Below are positions 1 to 56,827 of a DNA stretch of 64,000 bases, one piece after another (position 1 is the first letter of the stretch; each line of letters begins with the position of its first letter). The stretch comes from a bacterium (lineage in GTDB: Bacteria > Hydrothermota > Tepidihabitantia > SM23-42 > JAOAFX01). Where the stretch lies: positions 8,724 to 72,723 of the forward strand of contig JBNAVN010000003.1 of assembly GCA_049700315.1 (NCBI GenBank), given 5' to 3'. The position numbers and the translations under genes were made by a program. Under the pieces are notes generated by a model. The model was not told where the DNA came from. It did not search any database and worked only from the letters and a program-made list of their open reading frames with translations.

Positions 1-7
1 ATAACTA

Positions 8-2308
8 ATGCGAAGAGTCCATTTGAGTGTCAGAGGCATTGTTCAGGGTGTTGGATTCAGGCCGTTTGTTTATCGTCTTGCCTACAAATTAAATCTTGCT
101 GGTTTTGTTTGCAATACATCATACGGAGTGGAAATAGAGATTGAAGGTGATCTAAAAAAAATAAAAGAATTTTTAAAAAGACTCTCCTTAGAGAAACCAG
201 GGGCATCAATAATTGAATTGATCACGGTTAAACAGGTACAACTCAGAAGAGAAAAAAGGTTTGTAATAAAACAAAGTAAACGTGCTGAGGGTTTCACTCA
301 GATTTCGCCGGACATTGCAACCTGCAAAGATTGTTTGAAGGAATTTTTTAACCCTAAAGACCGTAGATTTATGTTTCCTTTTATAAACTGCACAAATTGT
401 GGTCCAAGATATTCAATAATCTATAATACACCTTATGACCGCAAACAGACTTCAATGAAGGAATTCAAAATGTGCCCGGATTGCGAAAAAGAATTTGAAG
501 ATGTAAACAATCGCAGATTCCATGCCCAGCCCGATTGTTGTTTTGTCTGTGGCCCAGAGTTTTCATTGTACAGAATTGACGGAAAAAAGATTAAAACAAA
601 AGACCCGATTGGAGAAGCAATAAATTTGATTAAAAAGGGACACATCATTGCAATCAAAGGGATTGGTGGATTCCATATTGCCTGTGATGCAACCAATTGT
701 GCCACTGTAAATAAACTAAGGGTTTTGAAGAATCGTCCAACAAAACCATTTGCGATAATGGCGAATGAAAAAGATCTTGAGAAGATAGTGAAGATAACAT
801 TACAAGAAAAAAAGATGATAAAATCTCCAATCGCACCAATAGTGCTCCTTGAGAAAAAAAAGAGTGTGGTATGTGAGGAGGTCGCGCCCAATAACCCCTA
901 TCTTGGTGTGATGTTGCCATATGCGCCGGTCCATTATTTACTGCTTGAGAAAATTCCCTTTCTCGTTATGACAAGTGCAAATATCGCAGATGAACCACTT
1001 GTAAAAGATGATACAGAAATGAAAACAAAACTAAAAAAAATGGTTTCATTCTATCTTACACACAATCGCAAAATCATAAACAGGTGTGATGATTCTGTAG
1101 GATTTTATCTCAAAACCCGCGGATTTTCAATCATCCGTCGTTCAAGGGGCTATGTGCCGATGCCGATTGAACTACCATTTTCTGTAAAACCAACCCTTGC
1201 GACCGGACCTTATCTAAAAAACACTTTTACCCTTGCCAATAAAAAAGATGCCTATATTTCTCCTCATATTGGAGACCTTGATAACGCTGACACATTGAAT
1301 TTTTTTTATGAGATGGTTGAGAAATATAAAAGATGGTTCAAGATTGAACCAGAATTGATTGTGCACGATTTACATCCGGATTACCTTTCAACAAAAATTG
1401 CAAGTGAAATGGCAATGAAAAAGGGATTAAAAAAGATTGCTATCCAGCATCACATTGCCCATATCGTTTCCTGCCTTTGTGAGAACAAAATCTTTGAAAA
1501 GGCGATCGGCATTGCATTTGATGGAACTGGATATGGAATTGATGGAAATATCTGGGGAAGTGAATTCTTTATCGGTGATTTGAAGAATCAAAAAAGGGTT
1601 GCCCATTTAGAATATCTTCCATTGCCTGGTGGTGAAGAAAGTATTAAAAAACCTTATCGCATTGCCATCGCATATCTTTATAAGATCTTTGGCTTGGAGT
1701 TCATCCGTAAGGATTTTATAAAAACCTTATGCCTTAACTATCCCTTCAGGGAGATTGATACAATAATCAAAATGATAGACCAGCATTATAACCTTGCCTA
1801 TACATCAAGTATGGGAAGATTATTTGACTGTATTTCAGCAATGCTTGGCATAACTCAGGAAATCACCTATGAGGCAGAGGCAGCAATAAACCTTGAATAT
1901 GTAGCAAAAAAGGGCATAAAAGATTATTATTCATATGAAGTTTTAAGAAAATCAGGGGACAAAGTAGTCAGTTCTTACGATGATGATGAATATGTTGTCC
2001 ATATCCGCCCAATCCTTGAAGGCATCATAAATGATATTATAAAAGGAGTGAACAAAAATATAATTTCATCAAAATTCCATAATACCGTTGTTCAATTCTC
2101 ACTTGACATCGCAAGGAAACTGCGTAGAATTCATAGCGTGAACAAGGTTGTCTTATCCGGCGGAGTCTTTCAGAATAGATATTTGTTAAATCTGATGATT
2201 AAGCGATTTGAAAATAATGATTTTAAGGTCTTTACCCATCATAAACTTCCAACGAATGATGGTTGTATCTCTTATGGGCAGGTGATATGTGGGAACTTAA
2301 TAACTTAA
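8..2308 (+). CDS. hypF: [NiFe] hydrogenase maturation carbamoyltransferase HypF
   Basis: N-terminal acylphosphatase motif (VxGxVQGVGFRPFVYRLA). Two CxxC-x18-CxxC zinc fingers (CKDC...CTNCGP, CPDC...CFVCGP). YrdC-like and Kae1/YgjD-like C-terminal domains. 766 aa, typical HypF length. Confidence 0.9.
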   Translation: MRRVHLSVRGIVQGVGFRPFVYRLAYKLNLAGFVCNTSYGVEIEIEGDLKKIKEFLKRLSLEKPGASIIELITVKQVQLRREKRFVIKQSKRAEGFTQISPDIATCKDCLKEFFNPKDRRFMFPFINCTNCGPRYSIIYNTPYDRKQTSMKEFKMCPDCEKEFEDVNNRRFHAQPDCCFVCGPEFSLYRIDGKKIKTKDPIGEAINLIKKGHIIAIKGIGGFHIACDATNCATVNKLRVLKNRPTKPFAIMANEKDLEKIVKITLQEKKMIKSPIAPIVLLEKKKSVVCEEVAPNNPYLGVMLPYAPVHYLLLEKIPFLVMTSANIADEPLVKDDTEMKTKLKKMVSFYLTHNRKIINRCDDSVGFYLKTRGFSIIRRSRGYVPMPIELPFSVKPTLATGPYLKNTFTLANKKDAYISPHIGDLDNADTLNFFYEMVEKYKRWFKIEPELIVHDLHPDYLSTKIASEMAMKKGLKKIAIQHHIAHIVSCLCENKIFEKAIGIAFDGTGYGIDGNIWGSEFFIGDLKNQKRVAHLEYLPLPGGEESIKKPYRIAIAYLYKIFGLEFIRKDFIKTLCLNYPFREIDTIIKMIDQHYNLAYTSSMGRLFDCISAMLGITQEITYEAEAAINLEYVAKKGIKDYYSYEVLRKSGDKVVSSYDDDEYVVHIRPILEGIINDIIKGVNKNIISSKFHNTVVQFSLDIARKLRRIHSVNKVVLSGGVFQNRYLLNLMIKRFENNDFKVFTHHKLPTNDGCISYGQVICGNLIT

Positions 2309-2363
2309 TAAGTAGGAAGTGGGAAGTGAGAGGCGAGAAGTGGGAAGTGGAAAGTGAGGAGAT
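2309..2363. repeat. Purine-rich spacer with about 5 tandem GAAGTG-containing heptamers between hypF and hypC
   Basis: Sequence gtaGGAAGTGgGAAGTGagaggcgaGAAGTGgGAAGTGgaaAGTGaggag read directly. Ends in GAGGAG, a Shine-Dalgarno for hypC. Confidence 0.5.
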
Positions 2364-2585
2364 ATGTGTTTAGCAGTGGTTGGTAGGATAGAAAAGATTG
2401 ATGGAGATATGGCAATTGCCGAGATTATGGGTGTGCAAAAAGAGATTTCAATCGTGCTCACACCTGAAGTAAAAATTGGTGATTATGTAATGATCCATGC
2501 AGGTTTTGCAATAAACCCCATAGACGAAAAAGAAGCAAAAGAGACCGAAAAACTTTTAAGAGAAGTTGCAAAGTATTCATTCTAA
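2364..2585 (+). CDS. hypC: Hydrogenase assembly chaperone HypC/HupF
   Basis: Starts MCLAV (conserved N-terminal Cys2 of the HypC family). About 73 aa. Immediately downstream of hypF. Confidence 0.8.
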   Translation: MCLAVVGRIEKIDGDMAIAEIMGVQKEISIVLTPEVKIGDYVMIHAGFAINPIDEKEAKETEKLLREVAKYSF

Positions 2586-2604
2586 AAAGATAAAATCTCA
2601 CTTT

Positions 2605-2796
2605 CTAATCAATTTTCCAGACAGGCCTATCGTCCTTCTTTATTTTCTTTGCTATCTCCTGTAATTTTACAAGTATCTTTATTTTTTCCTCAAAGGAAAT
2701 TCGGGCTTGTTCTTTGTGAAAATGCGATTTCTTTTCAAAAAGTTCTCTTCTTGTTATTATTTTACTCTCGTCTATGACTATTTTTACCTCTTCCAT
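2605..2796 (-). CDS. Hypothetical 63-aa protein, in frame with the upstream nucleotidyltransferase ORF; possible C-terminal piece of a disrupted or recoded gene
   Basis: Its ATG lies one codon after the TAG stop of ORF 2800..3303 in the same frame (minus strand reads TAG ATT ATG). Lys/Glu-rich helical sequence. Confidence 0.35.
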   Translation of the reverse strand: MEEVKIVIDESKIITRRELFEKKSHFHKEQARISFEEKIKILVKLQEIAKKIKKDDRPVWKID

Positions 2797-2799
2797 AAT

Positions 2800-3303
2800 C
2801 TAATCCATTTTTAAAAGTTCCAAAAATTTTTCTCTCAAGCCAAATTTATTCAAAATTTCATCAAGCCTTGTTTTGTCAATATCTGTCTGTGTAAGCAATT
2901 TTTCAATCTTTTCCAAATCTTTTTTCCTTCCTGCCCTTAAAAATATTGCTATAAGATATTCAGGATTAACTATTCTAATTTTTATTCCTTCATATTCTAC
3001 TTCTTTAGCATTTTCAACTGCCTCTTTTTCCAGTTCATCTGCAGGAATAAATTGGACTGGAACACCATCAATAATAATATGCTCGCCTTTCCAGGAATAT
3101 CCCTGAGATTTAAGATAATCAAAGATAGGGGTAAGTATTATTAAATTTTTTTCTTTTTCACTCATTGAAATTACAAATATATCTAAGTCATATGTTAAAA
3201 AGGGTTCAACATAAAATAATGCGGCGATACCACCACCTATAGCATAATCAATAATTATTCCCTTATCCTTTAATTCATTGATAACCTTCAGTGTCTCTTT
3301 CAT
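2800..3303 (-). CDS. Minimal nucleotidyltransferase (Pol beta superfamily fold)
   Basis: hG[GS]-x(9-15)-DhDh signature in IIIDYAIGGGIAALFYVEPFLTYDLDIFV. 167 aa. Confidence 0.5.
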   Translation of the reverse strand: MKETLKVINELKDKGIIIDYAIGGGIAALFYVEPFLTYDLDIFVISMSEKEKNLIILTPIFDYLKSQGYSWKGEHIIIDGVPVQFIPADELEKEAVENAKEVEYEGIKIRIVNPEYLIAIFLRAGRKKDLEKIEKLLTQTDIDKTRLDEILNKFGLREKFLELLKMD

Positions 3304-3339
3304 TCAATCTTTTTCTATCCGGTATTGTTTTTCACAAAA

Positions 3340-5271
3340 CTATCTTTCCCTCTTTGCCCACCAATTTTTTTCACCAAGTCCTTCAGTATAACATTTTCCT
3401 TCAATCCGTTCCCAGTCATCAAAAAGTTTACCTTTCAGGATAACTCTTTTCTTCTTCGTCGTCCAATAAAACACATTACGCTCCTTACAATTGACAGCAC
3501 CGTCTGCAAGAAAATCATCTTTTATCAAGAGCGCTGGAATTTCACCATTATAGGTAAGTTCTGCTGTTGGTTGATGCTGAAATTTCACTGTGAGTTGACC
3601 ATTCTTTTCTTTAATTGTCATTTTGAACGAGGCATTGTATGTAATACCATCTTCACCAATCTTGCCGATCCACGTACCAAGAGGGTTTTTCAAAACAATC
3701 ATTCCCAGATCAAGGGTCTCATGCTCACTCAAAGCAATATTGCGGGTGTAAACCTGGTATCCAGGAAAGACAATTTCAACTTTGTGTGGTGTTAAAAGAA
3801 TATTTCCTGAGACGTAGGGGGTCTTACCAACAAGCTCTCCATCAAGATAGACATTTGCACTTTCAGGTTCAGAATTAACCTGAAATACACCGTAAAGTGG
3901 AACAAGGCTTGCCCTGACCACAGCATTTCTACCAAACCCAATATTCACTCTTGTCTGCCATCTTTCGTACCCTGCTTTTTCAATCACAATCGTGTGCGAA
4001 CCCATAAACATTTTTGAAGATTCAAAAACACCTGCTTTCTTAGATTGAGTATCCAATTTTTTTCCATCAATGGAGACCAAGACATCGGTAGCAGGTTCAA
4101 CATAAATAACTATTTTGTTACGCACCAATGTCCATATCAGCAAAATGAAAATGACTATTGCAACCGCACCGATTGAAATGGATATTGTTTTCCTTATGAA
4201 ATTTTTGGTTGAGACCTCCACTTCTATTCTGGTTTTTTCTAACATTTCCTTATACTCAATTGCATCATGATCATACTCAACAGCCTTTTCAAAAAACAGA
4301 ACAGCATTTTTAGATTTTTTCTCTTTAAGATGTTTATCACCAATTTTATAGAAAATTGAAGCCAGTTTTCGCCGTGTCTCTTCATCAAAGCTTGTCACCT
4401 GCGATACTGGTATTCTGTTGATATAATATTCAGCACCTGATAGATCACCATTATCAAATTTCGCCAATGTCAAATAGCAGTTTATCGCACTCATCATTTC
4501 CTCCGAAATATTCTCTTTCACAAGCAAACTATTCAGAAATTCATCTGCCTTATCATATTCGCCATTATCATAATAGTACTTTCCAATCATAAAGCCCAAC
4601 TGAATATCATCAATTTTCATTTCCTCCATCTTCCTGTAATACTTTATCAATCTTTCCATATCATTCTGATCTGTGAAATATTGAACAATTTCTTTGATAA
4701 CCTCCACATTATCAGGAATTAGCGACTCCAGTTTCTGAAGTTCATGAAATGTCTTTTCTTTATCACCTTTTTGCTTGTACAGATTTTTCATTAACATATG
4801 GAACTCAACACTATCAGGTTTGATCTTAAGTATTTTTTCGCCGAGTGCTAGTGCTTCAATGATTTTATTTTGAAGATAATATACCCGGAAAAGTCCAATA
4901 AGTGGCTCCTCCGAATTAGGAGCAATATGTAAAGCAGAACGAAATGACTTTTCTGCATCATTGAGTTCATGGTTTTTGAGGTAAATCAAAGCAGATTTGT
5001 TGTGGGCATCAAAATTATTCGGGTCAATCCCTATTGCTATCTTATATTCATCAAGTGCTTCAAGTAGAAGACCATTTTTTTGATAAAGACCACCAAGTTC
5101 AATGCGGAGTTTTACATCCTTTGGGTCAGATTCAATTTTTTTTCGCAGAAGATTAATATGAGCAGAGGTTTCAGTCCTAAGGGTTATCAGAAATGTTCCA
5201 CATGCGCTACACATCTTGTATTTTTCCTTAATTGGTTTACCACAATGCGGACAATTATCCATAGTTACCAT
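3340..5271 (-). CDS. Zinc-ribbon, TPR-repeat and PEGA-domain membrane protein
   Basis: N-terminal CPHCG...CSACG zinc ribbon. Multiple TPR-like repeats. One TM helix (AVAIVIFILLIWTLV). Two C-terminal PEGA-like motifs (VNSEPESANVYLDGELVGKTP). Confidence 0.6.
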   Translation of the reverse strand: MVTMDNCPHCGKPIKEKYKMCSACGTFLITLRTETSAHINLLRKKIESDPKDVKLRIELGGLYQKNGLLLEALDEYKIAIGIDPNNFDAHNKSALIYLKNHELNDAEKSFRSALHIAPNSEEPLIGLFRVYYLQNKIIEALALGEKILKIKPDSVEFHMLMKNLYKQKGDKEKTFHELQKLESLIPDNVEVIKEIVQYFTDQNDMERLIKYYRKMEEMKIDDIQLGFMIGKYYYDNGEYDKADEFLNSLLVKENISEEMMSAINCYLTLAKFDNGDLSGAEYYINRIPVSQVTSFDEETRRKLASIFYKIGDKHLKEKKSKNAVLFFEKAVEYDHDAIEYKEMLEKTRIEVEVSTKNFIRKTISISIGAVAIVIFILLIWTLVRNKIVIYVEPATDVLVSIDGKKLDTQSKKAGVFESSKMFMGSHTIVIEKAGYERWQTRVNIGFGRNAVVRASLVPLYGVFQVNSEPESANVYLDGELVGKTPYVSGNILLTPHKVEIVFPGYQVYTRNIALSEHETLDLGMIVLKNPLGTWIGKIGEDGITYNASFKMTIKEKNGQLTVKFQHQPTAELTYNGEIPALLIKDDFLADGAVNCKERNVFYWTTKKKRVILKGKLFDDWERIEGKCYTEGLGEKNWWAKRER

Positions 5272-5376
5272 CCTTTTTTGAACTGACCATAATACATTGT
5301 AATTATATTGGTCATTAAGTGAATGTCAATAGCAATGATGGATTGACATTGCTATAAAAAGTACTATAATAAATTG

Positions 5377-52443: not shown

Positions 52444-52695
52444 TTATTCATTTGCAGTGCGTTCGACCTTAATGGCTTTGTCTCCTTTCGGAGTTTGCGT
52501 AATCTCAAACTTAACTCGTTCGCCTTCTCTAAGGACCCGATAACCTTCGCCCACAATATCCTGATAATGAACAAAGACATCACCGGTTCCATCTTCTTTT
52601 TCTATGAAACCATAGCCCTTCTTACCATCGAACCACTTTACTTTTCCGTAGACCAAATTTCCTCCTTTCGAGCCTTCATCGCCCTTGAAATTCAT
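52444..52695 (-). CDS. Cold-shock protein (CspA family) with short N-terminal extension
   Basis: GKVKWFDGKKGYGFI (RNP1-like) and VFVHY (RNP2-like) motifs. ATG at 52695 preceded by AGAGG. Own TTGACA-N16-TATAAT promoter at 52727-52754 (minus strand). Confidence 0.8.
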   Translation of the reverse strand: MNFKGDEGSKGGNLVYGKVKWFDGKKGYGFIEKEDGTGDVFVHYQDIVGEGYRVLREGERVKFEITQTPKGDKAIKVERTANE

Positions 52696-52726
52696 AAGGG
52701 CAACCTCTACGGTCAAAGCTTATTAT

Positions 52727-52754: not shown

Positions 52755-52776
52755 GAGCAGAATTTATTAAATAAAA

Positions 52777-52812
52777 AAGAGGGAGGCATTTACCTCCCTC
52801 TTTTTACTCTAT
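52777..52812. terminator. Bidirectional rho-independent terminator
   Basis: AAAAAGAGGGAGGcatttaCCTCCCTCTTTTT: perfect 13-bp stem flanked by A-run and T-run. Confidence 0.6.
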
Positions 52813-52813
52813 G

Positions 52814-52870
52814 TTACTTTTTTTTCTTCTTACCCTTCTTTTTAGTTTTCTTTGCCTTGCACTTTGGCAT
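52814..52870 (-). CDS. 18-codon polybasic mini-ORF (MPKCKAKKTKKKGKKKKK)
   Basis: Minus strand: consensus promoter, GGAGG 4 nt before ATG, 13 Lys of 18 residues, TAA stop abutting the bidirectional terminator. Not in the ORF track because it is under 60 aa. Confidence 0.45.
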   Translation of the reverse strand: MPKCKAKKTKKKGKKKKK

Positions 52871-52892
52871 TATGCCTCCTTTTTATTTCTTA

Positions 52893-52920
52893 ATTATATT
52901 CATTATTTCAATTTTGTCAA
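52893..52920 (-). promoter_or_regulatory. Consensus sigma70-type promoter for the polylysine mini-ORF
   Basis: Minus strand reads TTGACAaaattgaaataatgaaTATAAT, 15 nt before GGAGG. Confidence 0.5.
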
Positions 52921-53043
52921 TAGTCGCATGCGATATATGAATCATTATCTCTTGATTTCTGAAAATGTAGTAACAATCATAGATTTATTTCACGCAACAA
53001 TGATTACAATAGACAAATTGATGTACCAAATAGAAACTCTGTA

Positions 53044-53071
53044 TTGACATAGTCAATAATCAGAATATAAT
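53044..53071 (+). promoter_or_regulatory. Consensus sigma70-type promoter for the GYD-ferredoxin-agmatinase-peptidase operon
   Basis: TTGACAtagtcaataatcagaaTATAAT followed by AAGGAG and ATG at 53088. Confidence 0.5.
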
Positions 53072-53087: not shown

Positions 53088-53384
53088 ATGGCAACCTATA
53101 TCTTAGCGACAAAACTCTCTCCAGAATTGACCAGGGATTTGAGAAAAAGGGCTGAAATCGGTCGACAATGGATGGGAAGAGTGAAAAAAGATTGTCCTGA
53201 GGTAAAATTTCTTGCTCACTATGCACTCTTAGGACCTTATGATTTTCTGGACATCTATGAGGCACCCGATGAAGAAACTGCAGCCAAGGTTTCTATGATC
53301 AGTCTTTCCGGGGGTGCAATTTCCGCTGAATCATGGACTGCAATTCCTTATAAGAAATTTCTCGAATTGATAAAAGATTTGTAG
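53088..53384 (+). CDS. GYD domain protein
   Basis: HYALLGPYDFLDIYEAPDEETAAKVSM matches the GYD family signature. 98 aa. Confidence 0.65.
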   Translation: MATYILATKLSPELTRDLRKRAEIGRQWMGRVKKDCPEVKFLAHYALLGPYDFLDIYEAPDEETAAKVSMISLSGGAISAESWTAIPYKKFLELIKDL

Positions 53385-54976: not shown

Positions 54977-56827
54977 ATGACATTTTTGTTGATATTGTTA
55001 TCAAATCAGGAATTTTTTGGCTTGGACAATAAACAGGTATTTTGTCCTGAACCGGTTTATGCGGAATCAACTCATTCATACAATGTGCTACATTATTTCA
55101 TTGACCTTGATCTACCAATGACATCAAGATATCTATCTGGCGCAGTCACGATTGCCATGCGCAGTAATATAAACAATCTGAATATAATTGACCTTTATCT
55201 TGCAGGATTGAATGTTGATTCCATAAAAGTTGATGGAGTAACATCAACCTACACTCATACTGGAGATACACTACTTGTTAACTTACCAGTTCCCTATAAT
55301 CAGGGCGACTCATTCAATGTAAAAGTTGGCTACAGTGGAACCGCATCAGGCAATATGGGCTATCTGTATTATCAAAGTCTGCATCCAATATCATATACCC
55401 TGGGATGTCCTTTTTCAGAAAAACGGTGGTTCCCATGTTATGACCGTCTATGGGATAAGGCAGACTACGGTGTTGAATTTTACATTACTGTCCCAGATTC
55501 ATTCACAGTCTGTGCGACTGGTGAATATCTGGGTAAAGATGTGTCTCAGGGTTACGCAACTTATCATTGGAAACACAATTATCCTGTTTCCCCATATTTA
55601 ATTCATTTTGCATCAAGTATTTATACAACATATTCAGATTGGTATTATCCAGCACCAGGTGAAAGTGTGGAAGTGAAATACTATTTCTGGCCCAATGATA
55701 GTATTGCCGCAGCAAACGCATTCTCGTTAACAACTAACATGCTCTTTTTCTATGATTCATTGTTTGGTGATTATCCATTTGAACGGTATGGAATGAATGT
55801 AGTTAATCCGTTTGCCTATGGTGGTATGGAACATCAAACAATGAGCACAATCCACAGACAATGGCTTATCAATAATGACTATTATGGTATGGCACATGAA
55901 TTGTCCCATCAATGGTGGGGCGATATGATAACCTGTTTTGGCTGGCAAAATGTCTGGCTTAATGAAGGTTTTGCTACATACTGCGATGCACTCTACAAAG
56001 AATACAGAGAAGGACACAATGCATTCATAAATTTGATGCTCTCCCGGTTGAACGCATACTTTAGTGCAGAAAATTCAACGCCTCATCCAATCTACAATCC
56101 ACCATCTAACTTAATATTTGAATGGGGACACAGTTATTGCAAGGGTTCCTGGGTATTACACATGATCCGTTATCTTTGTGGTAACGACAGCATTTGGTTG
56201 AACCTTATGTCAACTTATCGTGATTCATTCGCCTATAAAAATGCCTCAACCGATGATTTGAATATGATAATGAATCAGGTTTTAAACAGCAATTATGATT
56301 GGTTTTTTGATGAATGGGTTTATAATATGGGTTATCCATACTACAGTATTGTATGGGGTAAAACATATGAACCGCCAAACTGGCGCCTTGTGCTTGATAT
56401 CACCCAGATTCAGACAATCGGACCCGCAGTATTTCATATGCCTCTACCCATCAGTATTTATTTTTCAAGCGCGGATACAATCGTTGTTCTCCAGATAAAT
56501 CAGTCTCCCCAGCACTTTGAGATTGTTCTAAATCAAGAACCAACCGCCATTGTTGTTGACCCTGAACATTGGTTAATTCAGAAGAATTTAGTCACGGGTA
56601 TAGAAGAATATGAATCTACGAACTGGTTTGGTGATTTGACCGTTTCCTCAATCAATAAAGAAATAAAAATGAAATTTCTTGATCCTCAGCGTATCAAAAT
56701 CTATGATGTTACAGGAAGGTGTGTTTTGGAAAGGCTTACAAGAAAATTAGATTTTACTCCTGCCAATGCGGGTGTTTACTATGTAAATATTGATAGAATT
56801 TTTAAGAAAATAATAATCGTGAAGTGA
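54977..56827 (+). CDS. M1-family zinc aminopeptidase with C-terminal T9SS-type sorting domain
   Basis: HELSHQWWG plus WLNEGFATY (HExxH-x18-E). GAMEN-like GGMEH. C-terminal beta-rich IYDVTGRCV...AGVYYVNI resembling Por secretion CTD. Confidence 0.7.
   Translation: MTFLLILLSNQEFFGLDNKQVFCPEPVYAESTHSYNVLHYFIDLDLPMTSRYLSGAVTIAMRSNINNLNIIDLYLAGLNVDSIKVDGVTSTYTHTGDTLLVNLPVPYNQGDSFNVKVGYSGTASGNMGYLYYQSLHPISYTLGCPFSEKRWFPCYDRLWDKADYGVEFYITVPDSFTVCATGEYLGKDVSQGYATYHWKHNYPVSPYLIHFASSIYTTYSDWYYPAPGESVEVKYYFWPNDSIAAANAFSLTTNMLFFYDSLFGDYPFERYGMNVVNPFAYGGMEHQTMSTIHRQWLINNDYYGMAHELSHQWWGDMITCFGWQNVWLNEGFATYCDALYKEYREGHNAFINLMLSRLNAYFSAENSTPHPIYNPPSNLIFEWGHSYCKGSWVLHMIRYLCGNDSIWLNLMSTYRDSFAYKNASTDDLNMIMNQVLNSNYDWFFDEWVYNMGYPYYSIVWGKTYEPPNWRLVLDITQIQTIGPAVFHMPLPISIYFSSADTIVVLQINQSPQHFEIVLNQEPTAIVVDPEHWLIQKNLVTGIEEYESTNWFGDLTVSSINKEIKMKFLDPQRIKIYDVTGRCVLERLTRKLDFTPANAGVYYVNIDRIFKKIIIVK

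Follow-up and report, generated by a model that had tools for sequence, protein, structure and literature searches.

Is an open reading frame (ORF) of 18 codons, most of them lysine codons, a gene, and if so, what could its product do? This question is raised by a locus on contig JBNAVN010000003.1 of the bacterial assembly GCA_049700315.1 (phylum Hydrothermota, GTDB order SM23-42). We analyzed a stretch of 64,000 nucleotides of this contig (positions 8,724 to 72,723 of the forward strand), which is called the window below and to which all coordinates refer; related loci are designated by L numbers. The ORF in question, further called the mini-gene, lies on the minus strand at 52814-52870 and is beyond the reach of gene callers. 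An earlier note on this DNA described it as a stand-alone expression cassette for a polylysine peptide. This description is borne out, and the same cassette was found in 10 other distinct loci. Sequence comparison of these loci shows that the mini-gene is real, unannotated, autonomous, monocistronic and protein-coding, and that purifying selection acts on the peptide itself.

The cassette and its conservation

The minus strand between 52768 and 52920 carries a promoter, a 22-nt leader holding AAAAAGGAGG, the 18-codon ORF, a hairpin and a U-run. The promoter consists of the -35 hexamer TTGACA (52915-52920) and the -10 hexamer TATAAT (52893-52898) separated by a 16-nt spacer. Together they score 12/12 against the consensus, so the perfect promoter reported earlier is confirmed. 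The Shine-Dalgarno (SD) region was read from the sequence as AAAAAGGAGG (52875-52884, minus strand); it is strong and ends 4 nt 5' of the ATG at 52870, at the spacing given earlier. The coding sequence (ATG CCA AAG TGC AAG GCA AAG AAA ACT AAA AAG AAG GGT AAG AAG AAA AAA AAG TAA) specifies the peptide MPKCKAKKTKKKGKKKKK. Its 18 codons and the TAA at 52814 are as the earlier note gave them, while the count of lysines has to be corrected from 13 to 12.

An intrinsic terminator follows at 52768-52811 (minus strand). Its core stem (52805-52792 paired with 52787-52774, loop UAAA) has 13 Watson-Crick pairs and one G-U pair, is succeeded by a T-run and is extended by four weak outer pairs. The hairpin is strong, but it does not abut the stop codon as had been stated: the core stem starts 8 nt past it, or 2 nt if the weak outer pairs are included. 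We estimate the transcript length as about 115 nt. Its fold has a minimum free energy of -29.4 kcal/mol (z = -5.3), nearly all of the structure being in the terminator, which is by far the strongest terminator-like hairpin within the surrounding 20 kb (44-64 kb of the window). The window contains 14 ORFs of 8-45 codons rich in lysine or arginine; the mini-gene alone has both more than 10 codons and an SD.

The first three relatives were found via the TPR protein encoded downstream of csp. Syntenic cassettes between the GYD-domain gene and csp in these loci, whose TPR proteins are 76%, 73% and 69% identical to that of the window, encode the peptides MRKCGAKKTKKKGKKKKK, MPKCGAKKTKKKGKKKKK and MPKCGAKKTKKKGKKKKKK. 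The strict pattern K-C-x-A-K-K-T-K-K-K was then run on 185,579 species-representative genomes and gave 10 matches. Four of them are genuine, all in WOR-3 or unclassified metagenome-assembled genomes (MAGs), and the other six are chance matches inside other reading frames. A relaxed pattern with ARR codons, run on metagenomes, gave six genuine copies in 120 among the matches listed, i.e., at least six further copies; the rest of those listed are mostly eukaryote-like (AGA)n/(AAG)n microsatellite ORFs. The resulting family thus includes at least 11 distinct loci from WOR-3 genomes and metagenomes (10 besides the window, part of them from the metagenome matches listed), each with an ORF of 17-19 codons. 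A search with nhmmer and the family model found one copy per family locus and none extra or divergent in the other WOR-3 loci examined, and no pattern match was obtained in viral contigs.

The carriers belong to a subclade of WOR-3 that includes the GTDB order SM23-42 and MAGs from hot-spring sediment. Some of the carrier MAGs come from such sediment and have a guanine-cytosine (GC) content of about 38%.

The metagenome matches listed include a repeated element (L047, L049, L061, L062, L071, L081, L092, L105, L108, L113 and others, on Ga0325xxx and Ga0307xxx contigs) with the conserved flanks ...CAGTGGAGAC ATG GAG AAA TGC (AGA/CGN)n ... GGGPGRW. This element probably represents a microsatellite-bearing repeat of eukaryotic origin and has no relation to the mini-gene.

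All parts of the cassette are retained within the family. The -35 hexamer stands at the same position and the -10 hexamer is kept in 11 of 11 loci, as are the ATG, the SD spacing and the stop codon. The SD region AAAAAGGAGG is identical in 10 of the 11 loci, the exception being L055 with AAAAAGGGGG. Folding of 10 downstream regions of the family gave a hairpin in each case, with energies from -16.8 to -27.2 kcal/mol and 6-18 nt past the stop, and the stem sequences differ from locus to locus. Each family copy has its own promoter, SD and terminator. In nearly all family terminators the 5' arm contains an SD-like GGAGG (GGGAGG, GGGGAGG or GGAGGAG; in the window at 52792-52805, minus strand). 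The 3' arm thus reads CCUCC(C), which resembles an anti-SD and could also pair with the gene's own AAAAAGGAGG; the motif may, however, reflect no more than a preference for purines in the stem.

The family peptides follow the pattern M[PR]KC[GKTA][ATV]KKTKKK[GSN]KKKK(K)(K). Invariant in the alignment are M1, K3, C4, K7, K8, T9, K10-12 and K14-17; positions 2 (P/R), 5 (G/K/T/A), 6 (A/T/V) and 13 (G/S/N) vary, as does the C-terminal end (17-19 residues). Both search patterns demanded C4, whereas T9, left free in the second one, is nevertheless invariant. Between the window and L024 the peptides are identical in 16 of 18 residues (89%), at a divergence at which the M1 peptidases are 40% identical; the peptide is about as well conserved as many housekeeping proteins.

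The pattern of nucleotide changes is that of a coding sequence. Over all pairs of family loci pS is 0.77, which is near saturation, and pN is 0.064, giving a ratio of 0.08. Variable alignment columns are distributed over codon positions 1, 2 and 3 as 3/4/13, and synonymous changes are seen in CCN, TGY, GCN and ACN codons as well as in AAR codons. The third positions of lysine codons are exclusively A or G across the family. Conservation of the reading frame in relatives, on which the earlier note had staked its proposal, is therefore found: frame, length and peptide are under strong purifying selection.

Codon choice shows two further regularities. Lysine is encoded by AAG in 47% of cases in the family ORFs versus 35% genome-wide, and the longest A-run in any member is A8; both are consistent with selection for faithful translation of a polylysine ORF. 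The last four lysine codons, AAG AAA AAA AAG (52817-52828, minus strand), are invariant in all nine members of 18 codons (the window, L016, L019, L024, L028, L029, L119, L123 and L147), while the other lysine codons vary freely. These invariant codons create an in-frame slippery heptamer A_AAA_AAG, followed by the stop and the hairpin. We considered a programmed -1 frameshift at the heptamer and rejected it: the shifted products (VT*, VA*, VVPIVRKGR*) are short and not conserved.

Genomic neighborhood and promoters

In the window the mini-gene sits between a divergent GYD-domain gene (53088-53384, plus strand) and csp (52656-52444, minus strand), and the order on the minus strand is mini-gene, csp, TPR, thiD2/thiE, hpf, hprK. 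The earlier placement of the mini-gene between csp and the hpf/hprK region was wrong, and the argument from this placement for a role in translation is not supported, the neighborhood not being conserved. The organism belongs to candidate division WOR-3: proteins encoded next to the mini-gene have their best matches in WOR-3 MAGs; exact-sequence look-ups of the GYD and TPR proteins of the window returned no record.

At least four kinds of downstream neighbor were seen: csp, a putative rpoN, a putative smpB, and a cupin/147-residue lipoprotein pair. The names rest on the N-terminal sequences of these neighbors or on Pfam matches in related loci. Downstream of the mini-gene lies csp in the window, L016, L019 and L020; a 454-residue protein with a sigma-54 (RpoN)-like N-terminus in L119; a putative smpB, followed by an amidase-like ORF and by murI-like and rph-like ORFs, in L028; a small cupin-like protein with a 147-residue putative lipoprotein in L024, L123, L147 and L029; and the same putative lipoprotein as in the L024 group in L055. 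In the window, L016, L019, L020 and L028 the downstream genes have promoter-like sites of their own. Since the family copies have their own terminators, the neighbors vary and these downstream genes have their own promoter-like sites, the mini-gene travels as a self-contained module. It is not a csp leader.

On the other side the association is loose as well. Fifteen GYD-syntenic loci with GYD proteins 82-94% identical have another upstream side, with no lysine-rich ORF within 4 kb, which means that the mini-gene is not tied to GYD.

Two of the related arrangements concern the ends of the module. The closest GYD relatives, L006-L010 (positions about 1-3770, 94% identity), keep the side with GYD, ferredoxin, agmatinase and M1 peptidase; on the other side, in place of the mini-gene and csp of the window, they have a TetR regulator and an RND efflux operon. 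L028 encodes an identical mini-gene peptide after a similar upstream region of 120 nt, and a putative smpB comes next. Both arrangements point to a rearrangement breakpoint directly after the terminator.

The csp gene itself, which has a TTG start, is preceded by a 5' untranslated region of about 70 nt (52657-52726, minus strand; GCTTTGACCGTAGAGGTTGCCCTTATGAATTTCAAGGGCGAT...GAAAGGAGG) that is conserved in L016, L019, L020, L022 and L154. This region contains a hairpin with compensatory changes in L154, and Rfam has no family that matches the region, which may act as an RNA thermosensor of the cold-shock type. Three relatives have a csp protein that is 100% identical.

Two observations concern other genes of these loci. 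In L157, a distant WOR-3 relative, positions 1-3006 encode a LanC-like/DUF4135 protein and an ABC transporter with a C39 peptidase, i.e., machinery of the lanthipeptide type, about 3 kb from the TPR homolog. The M1 aminopeptidase of the window (54977-56827, plus strand) has homologs in related loci with a faint Pfam hit to Por_Secre_tail, a sorting domain of type IX secretion; if real, this hit would agree with a relationship between this WOR-3 lineage and the FCB group.

The promoter of the mini-gene is of a kind frequent in this DNA. The perfect TTGACA-N16-TATAAT occurs 11 times in the window against 0.07 expected, with a spacer of 16 nt in every case: at 5329, 51032, 52754, 52920 and 59652 on the minus strand and at 5343, 17775, 24932, 27677, 41135 and 53044 on the plus strand. 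Because of this number we regard the perfect promoter as the standard form of the organism. The site at the mini-gene is therefore credible as a promoter, yet it does not indicate exceptionally strong expression. In this lineage the sigma-70 promoter seems to be unusually invariant. Several of the 11 promoters are close to start codons, and their transcripts look leaderless or very short-leadered.

Function of the peptide

Our preferred reading, to which we assign a probability of about 0.4, is that the peptide is a trans-acting cytoplasmic polycation binding structured RNA, possibly a pocket of the ribosomal RNA (rRNA) in the manner of bS22 or eL41. The sigma-70-type promoter would yield the short-leadered transcript of about 115 nt, the strong SD would direct translation of the 18 codons, and the dedicated intrinsic terminator would insulate the next gene. 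As the product has neither a signal sequence nor a hydrophobic segment, it is expected to be cytoplasmic; its net charge would be about +12, and its most likely mode of action would be binding of a polyanion in trans. The preferred target would be structured RNA, specifically an rRNA pocket, where the peptide could neutralize closely packed rRNA phosphates as bS22, eL41 and bTHX do. Specificity could come from P2, C4, T9 and the small residues at positions 6 and 13; P2 is treated here as invariant, although the alignment has P or R at this position. The fixed length and residue order, kept at a divergence at which the peptidase is 40% identical, suggest a defined binding site rather than bulk charge. 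On a helical wheel the non-basic residues 2, 6, 9 and 13 fall within a 60-degree arc; this is not significant (permutation p 0.07-0.15) and only weakly suggestive.

Several observations weigh against this reading. The 12 basic positions are lysine in 11 of 11 loci and never arginine, although arginine makes up 38% of lysine plus arginine in the genome and 37-41% in the bL35 and bL20 proteins of the window, and AGA is the commonest arginine codon; the chance of lysine at all 12 positions of one sequence is 0.62^12 = 0.003. Besides M1 the residues are K, A, T, G, S, P, C and V only, with no hydrophobic anchors, whereas bS22, eL41 and bTHX are arginine-rich and have such anchors. The [AS]THKRKK core and NRHKK tail of bS22 are absent from all nine WOR-3 peptide variants, and hhalign of the family against bS22 of the FCB group and spirochaetes gave a probability of 0.7% with one aligned column. 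A PDB search with the family profile gave no matches at E<=10. The distribution is narrow, too: the family is seen solely in the WOR-3 subclade (4 of the 185,579 species representatives under the strict pattern), and more distant WOR-3 csp-TPR loci, with TPR proteins 44-60% identical, have neither the mini-gene nor another SD-preceded basic mini-ORF.

The more specific proposal, that the Lys-only 18-mer is a previously unseen ribosomal or RNA-bound WOR-3 protein (a drastically shortened equivalent of bS22 or a new family), is held with considerable doubt. If the peptide is ribosomal or RNA-bound, its strict use of lysine over arginine would point to a chemistry of binding or modification unused by known microproteins.

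The same composition suits the strongest competitor, a general counter-ion for nucleic acids and other polyanions. Such an oligolysine would coat or condense DNA, RNA or polyphosphate non-specifically, in the way of an H1 tail or a polyamine, and would not be a stoichiometric component of the ribosome. Lysine as the only basic residue, accompanied by A, T, G, S, P and V with no arginine and no hydrophobic anchor, agrees with it, and so does the combination of a strong SD with the genome's ordinary perfect-consensus promoter. The hot-spring origin and the GC content of about 38% of some carriers would make extra charge neutralization plausible. But low-complexity tails normally drift, and here the length of 17-19 residues, C4, T9 and the non-lysine positions are fixed while synonymous sites are saturated; charge alone hardly explains why a single cysteine and a single threonine never vary. 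We treat this explanation as a tentative one, somewhat behind binding to structured RNA.

The demand for lysine codons, and not charge, could also account for the composition. A lysine-codon-sensing leader had been proposed in the earlier note, and in its broader form the mini-gene would be a cis-acting sensor: translation of 12 lysine codons would report the supply of Lys-tRNA, the modification of tRNA-Lys or the capacity for ribosome rescue, and where the ribosome stands relative to the terminator would determine how far transcription continues into the following gene or how stable the transcript is. The synonymously invariant AAG AAA AAA AAG of the nine 18-codon members, with its slippery heptamer, stop and hairpin, fits this, as do the short distance of 6-18 nt from the stop to the terminator stem and the position of one copy (L028) directly upstream of a putative smpB. 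Several facts make it improbable nevertheless. Each copy is self-terminated, and the genes downstream vary, those shown having promoter-like sites of their own. No antiterminator pairing appears in the fold, where a single dominant hairpin is predicted; with 6-18 nt between stop and hairpin a terminating ribosome would not consistently occlude the stem. The products of the -1 frame are not conserved. Finally, codon sensing alone needs no conservation of P2, C4, A6 and T9 at the amino-acid level.

Still less probable is a small regulatory RNA in which the ORF is incidental or secondary. In its favor, the transcript, estimated at about 115 nt, has a purine-rich body free of structure and ends in a terminator hairpin and U-tail; the distal face of Hfq binds A-R-N repeats, to which (AAR)n conforms, and in its 3' part the ORF is conserved at the nucleotide level. 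However, the variation is concentrated in third codon positions (3/4/13) and extends to codons outside the ARN type (CCA/CCT/CCG, TGC/TGT, GCA/GCG/GCT, ACA/ACC/ACT). Third positions of lysine codons are never C or T, though an ARN motif would allow both, and no locus has lost the ATG, the SD spacing or the stop. Rfam 15 has no family for the transcript, the best overlapping scores being 14-28 bits versus gathering cut-offs of 44-100.

A type I toxin-like product of the hydrophobic antisense ORF (plus strand, 52811-53047, MLLFFLLTLLFSFLCLALW...), which is Phe/Leu-rich and open in the codon-aligned frame at all loci, is hardly credible, because an open frame is always expected opposite polylysine, the ATG is present in the window, L016 and L028 only, the start is preceded by no promoter or SD, the ORF would run through the sense promoter, and the pattern of selection fits the sense frame.

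If ribosome-bound, the peptide would extend the set of lineage-specific ribosomal microproteins (bS22, bL37, bL38) and would lower the size limit known for trans-acting proteins of the ribosomal type, being shorter than eL41 (25 residues), bTHX (27) and bS22 (28-33). Should it act as a free polycation, cells would have in it a genetically encoded equivalent of polyamines. In both cases a concrete, synthesizable 18-mer is available, and the locus is a clean example of how synonymous-site analysis can validate ORFs that are much shorter than annotation cut-offs permit. The phylum now has an isolate in pure culture (sy37, PMC12285271), and 181 WOR-3 MAGs are listed in PMC12542636. Experiments would be conceivable should that isolate or a relative have the mini-gene.

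Comparison with known systems

In the literature that we searched, neither stand-alone polylysine genes nor small proteins of WOR-3 are described. A tandem query of 54 residues had no match at E<=10 in a set of 5.8 billion predicted proteins, a search with poor sensitivity for an 18-residue low-complexity match. The sequences of bTHX (Thermus), eL41 and mycobacterial bS22 used for comparison were verified against PDB; what they have in common with the peptide is size and charge only.

Attenuator leader peptides (thrL, hisL, pheL) have 14-30 codons enriched in one amino acid with a terminator close behind, and to this extent the mini-gene resembles them. Here, by contrast, there is no antiterminator pairing and no lysine-related or constant downstream gene, the downstream genes shown have promoter-like sites of their own, and the peptide is conserved. 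Type I toxins and other small membrane proteins are marked by a hydrophobic stretch, which the peptide does not have.

Tails of the H1 type and bacterial H1-like proteins are closest in composition: lysine with alanine, threonine, proline, glycine and serine, and almost no arginine or hydrophobic residues. A lysine-rich composition free of arginine and of anchors is typical of such tails and not of microproteins embedded in rRNA. These tails are long, repeat-like and fast-evolving segments of larger proteins, whereas the mini-gene encodes a free-standing peptide of 18 residues with fixed length and order.

bTHX, a 30S protein of 26-27 residues in Thermus and plastids, belongs to the same size class, and its RRTRRGK can be laid loosely against KKTKKKGK with two gaps. 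Its signature GKGD...RGK...YGK.RPRK is absent from the WOR-3 peptide, and G13 is not conserved (G/S/N). We reject homology with bTHX: two gaps are required, none of the signature motifs is present, and the PDB profile search found no THX chain.

The likeness to eL41 and bS22 that the earlier note had suggested holds for size and charge. The fraction of lysine plus arginine is 0.61-0.67 in the family versus 0.68 in eL41 and 0.55 in bS22. eL41 is, like the peptide of the window, short and basic (0.68 vs 0.67), and in eL41/eS32 the non-basic residues are biased to one helical face, as they may be in the peptide. It differs in being dominated by arginine, in having Trp, Met and Leu anchors and in its eukaryotic and archaeal distribution, and it was not matched by the search with the family profile.

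bS22, a small-subunit microprotein of the AURKAIP1/COX24 type that occurs in Mycobacterium, Flavobacterium, Porphyromonas and Borrelia and binds the 16S h44/h45/h27 pocket at the subunit interface, is also tiny and extremely basic, and its small gene is missed by standard annotation. The sequences given in the Borrelia ribosome paper and in PDB (Flavobacterium, MPSGKKRKRHKVATHKRKKRARANRHKKKK; PDB chain 9i5v, MPNGKKRKRHKMATHKRKKRLKKNRHKKKK; Borrelia, MPCGRKRKLKKISTHKRKKKRRKNRHKK) share the [AS]THKRKK core and the NRHKK tail, which are invariant from Bacteroidota to Spirochaetota (Borrelia). The start MPSG, MPNG or MPCG followed by a basic run (MPSGKKRK..., MPCGRKRK...) is similar to MPKCGAKK, but the alignment needs an insertion of one residue and is a post hoc match in low-complexity sequence. 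The two also differ in length (28-33 residues in PDB chains versus 17-19) and in composition: bS22 is arginine-rich with histidine and hydrophobic residues, and the WOR-3 peptide is Lys-only. Homology with bS22 is thus unsupported, both by the hhalign probability of 0.7% and by the missing core, and the likeness remains an analogy. No canonical bS22-like ORF was found in 386 kb of WOR-3 DNA, an amount far too small to judge absence.

What bS22 does offer is a precedent. In Borrelia its gene had escaped annotation, and those who discovered it expect that more bacteria have it (PMC10618245); eL41/eS32, a single helix, occupies the same rRNA pocket as bS22 (PMC10618245). A ribosomal role of a basic mini-gene that is invisible to annotation has therefore been seen before.

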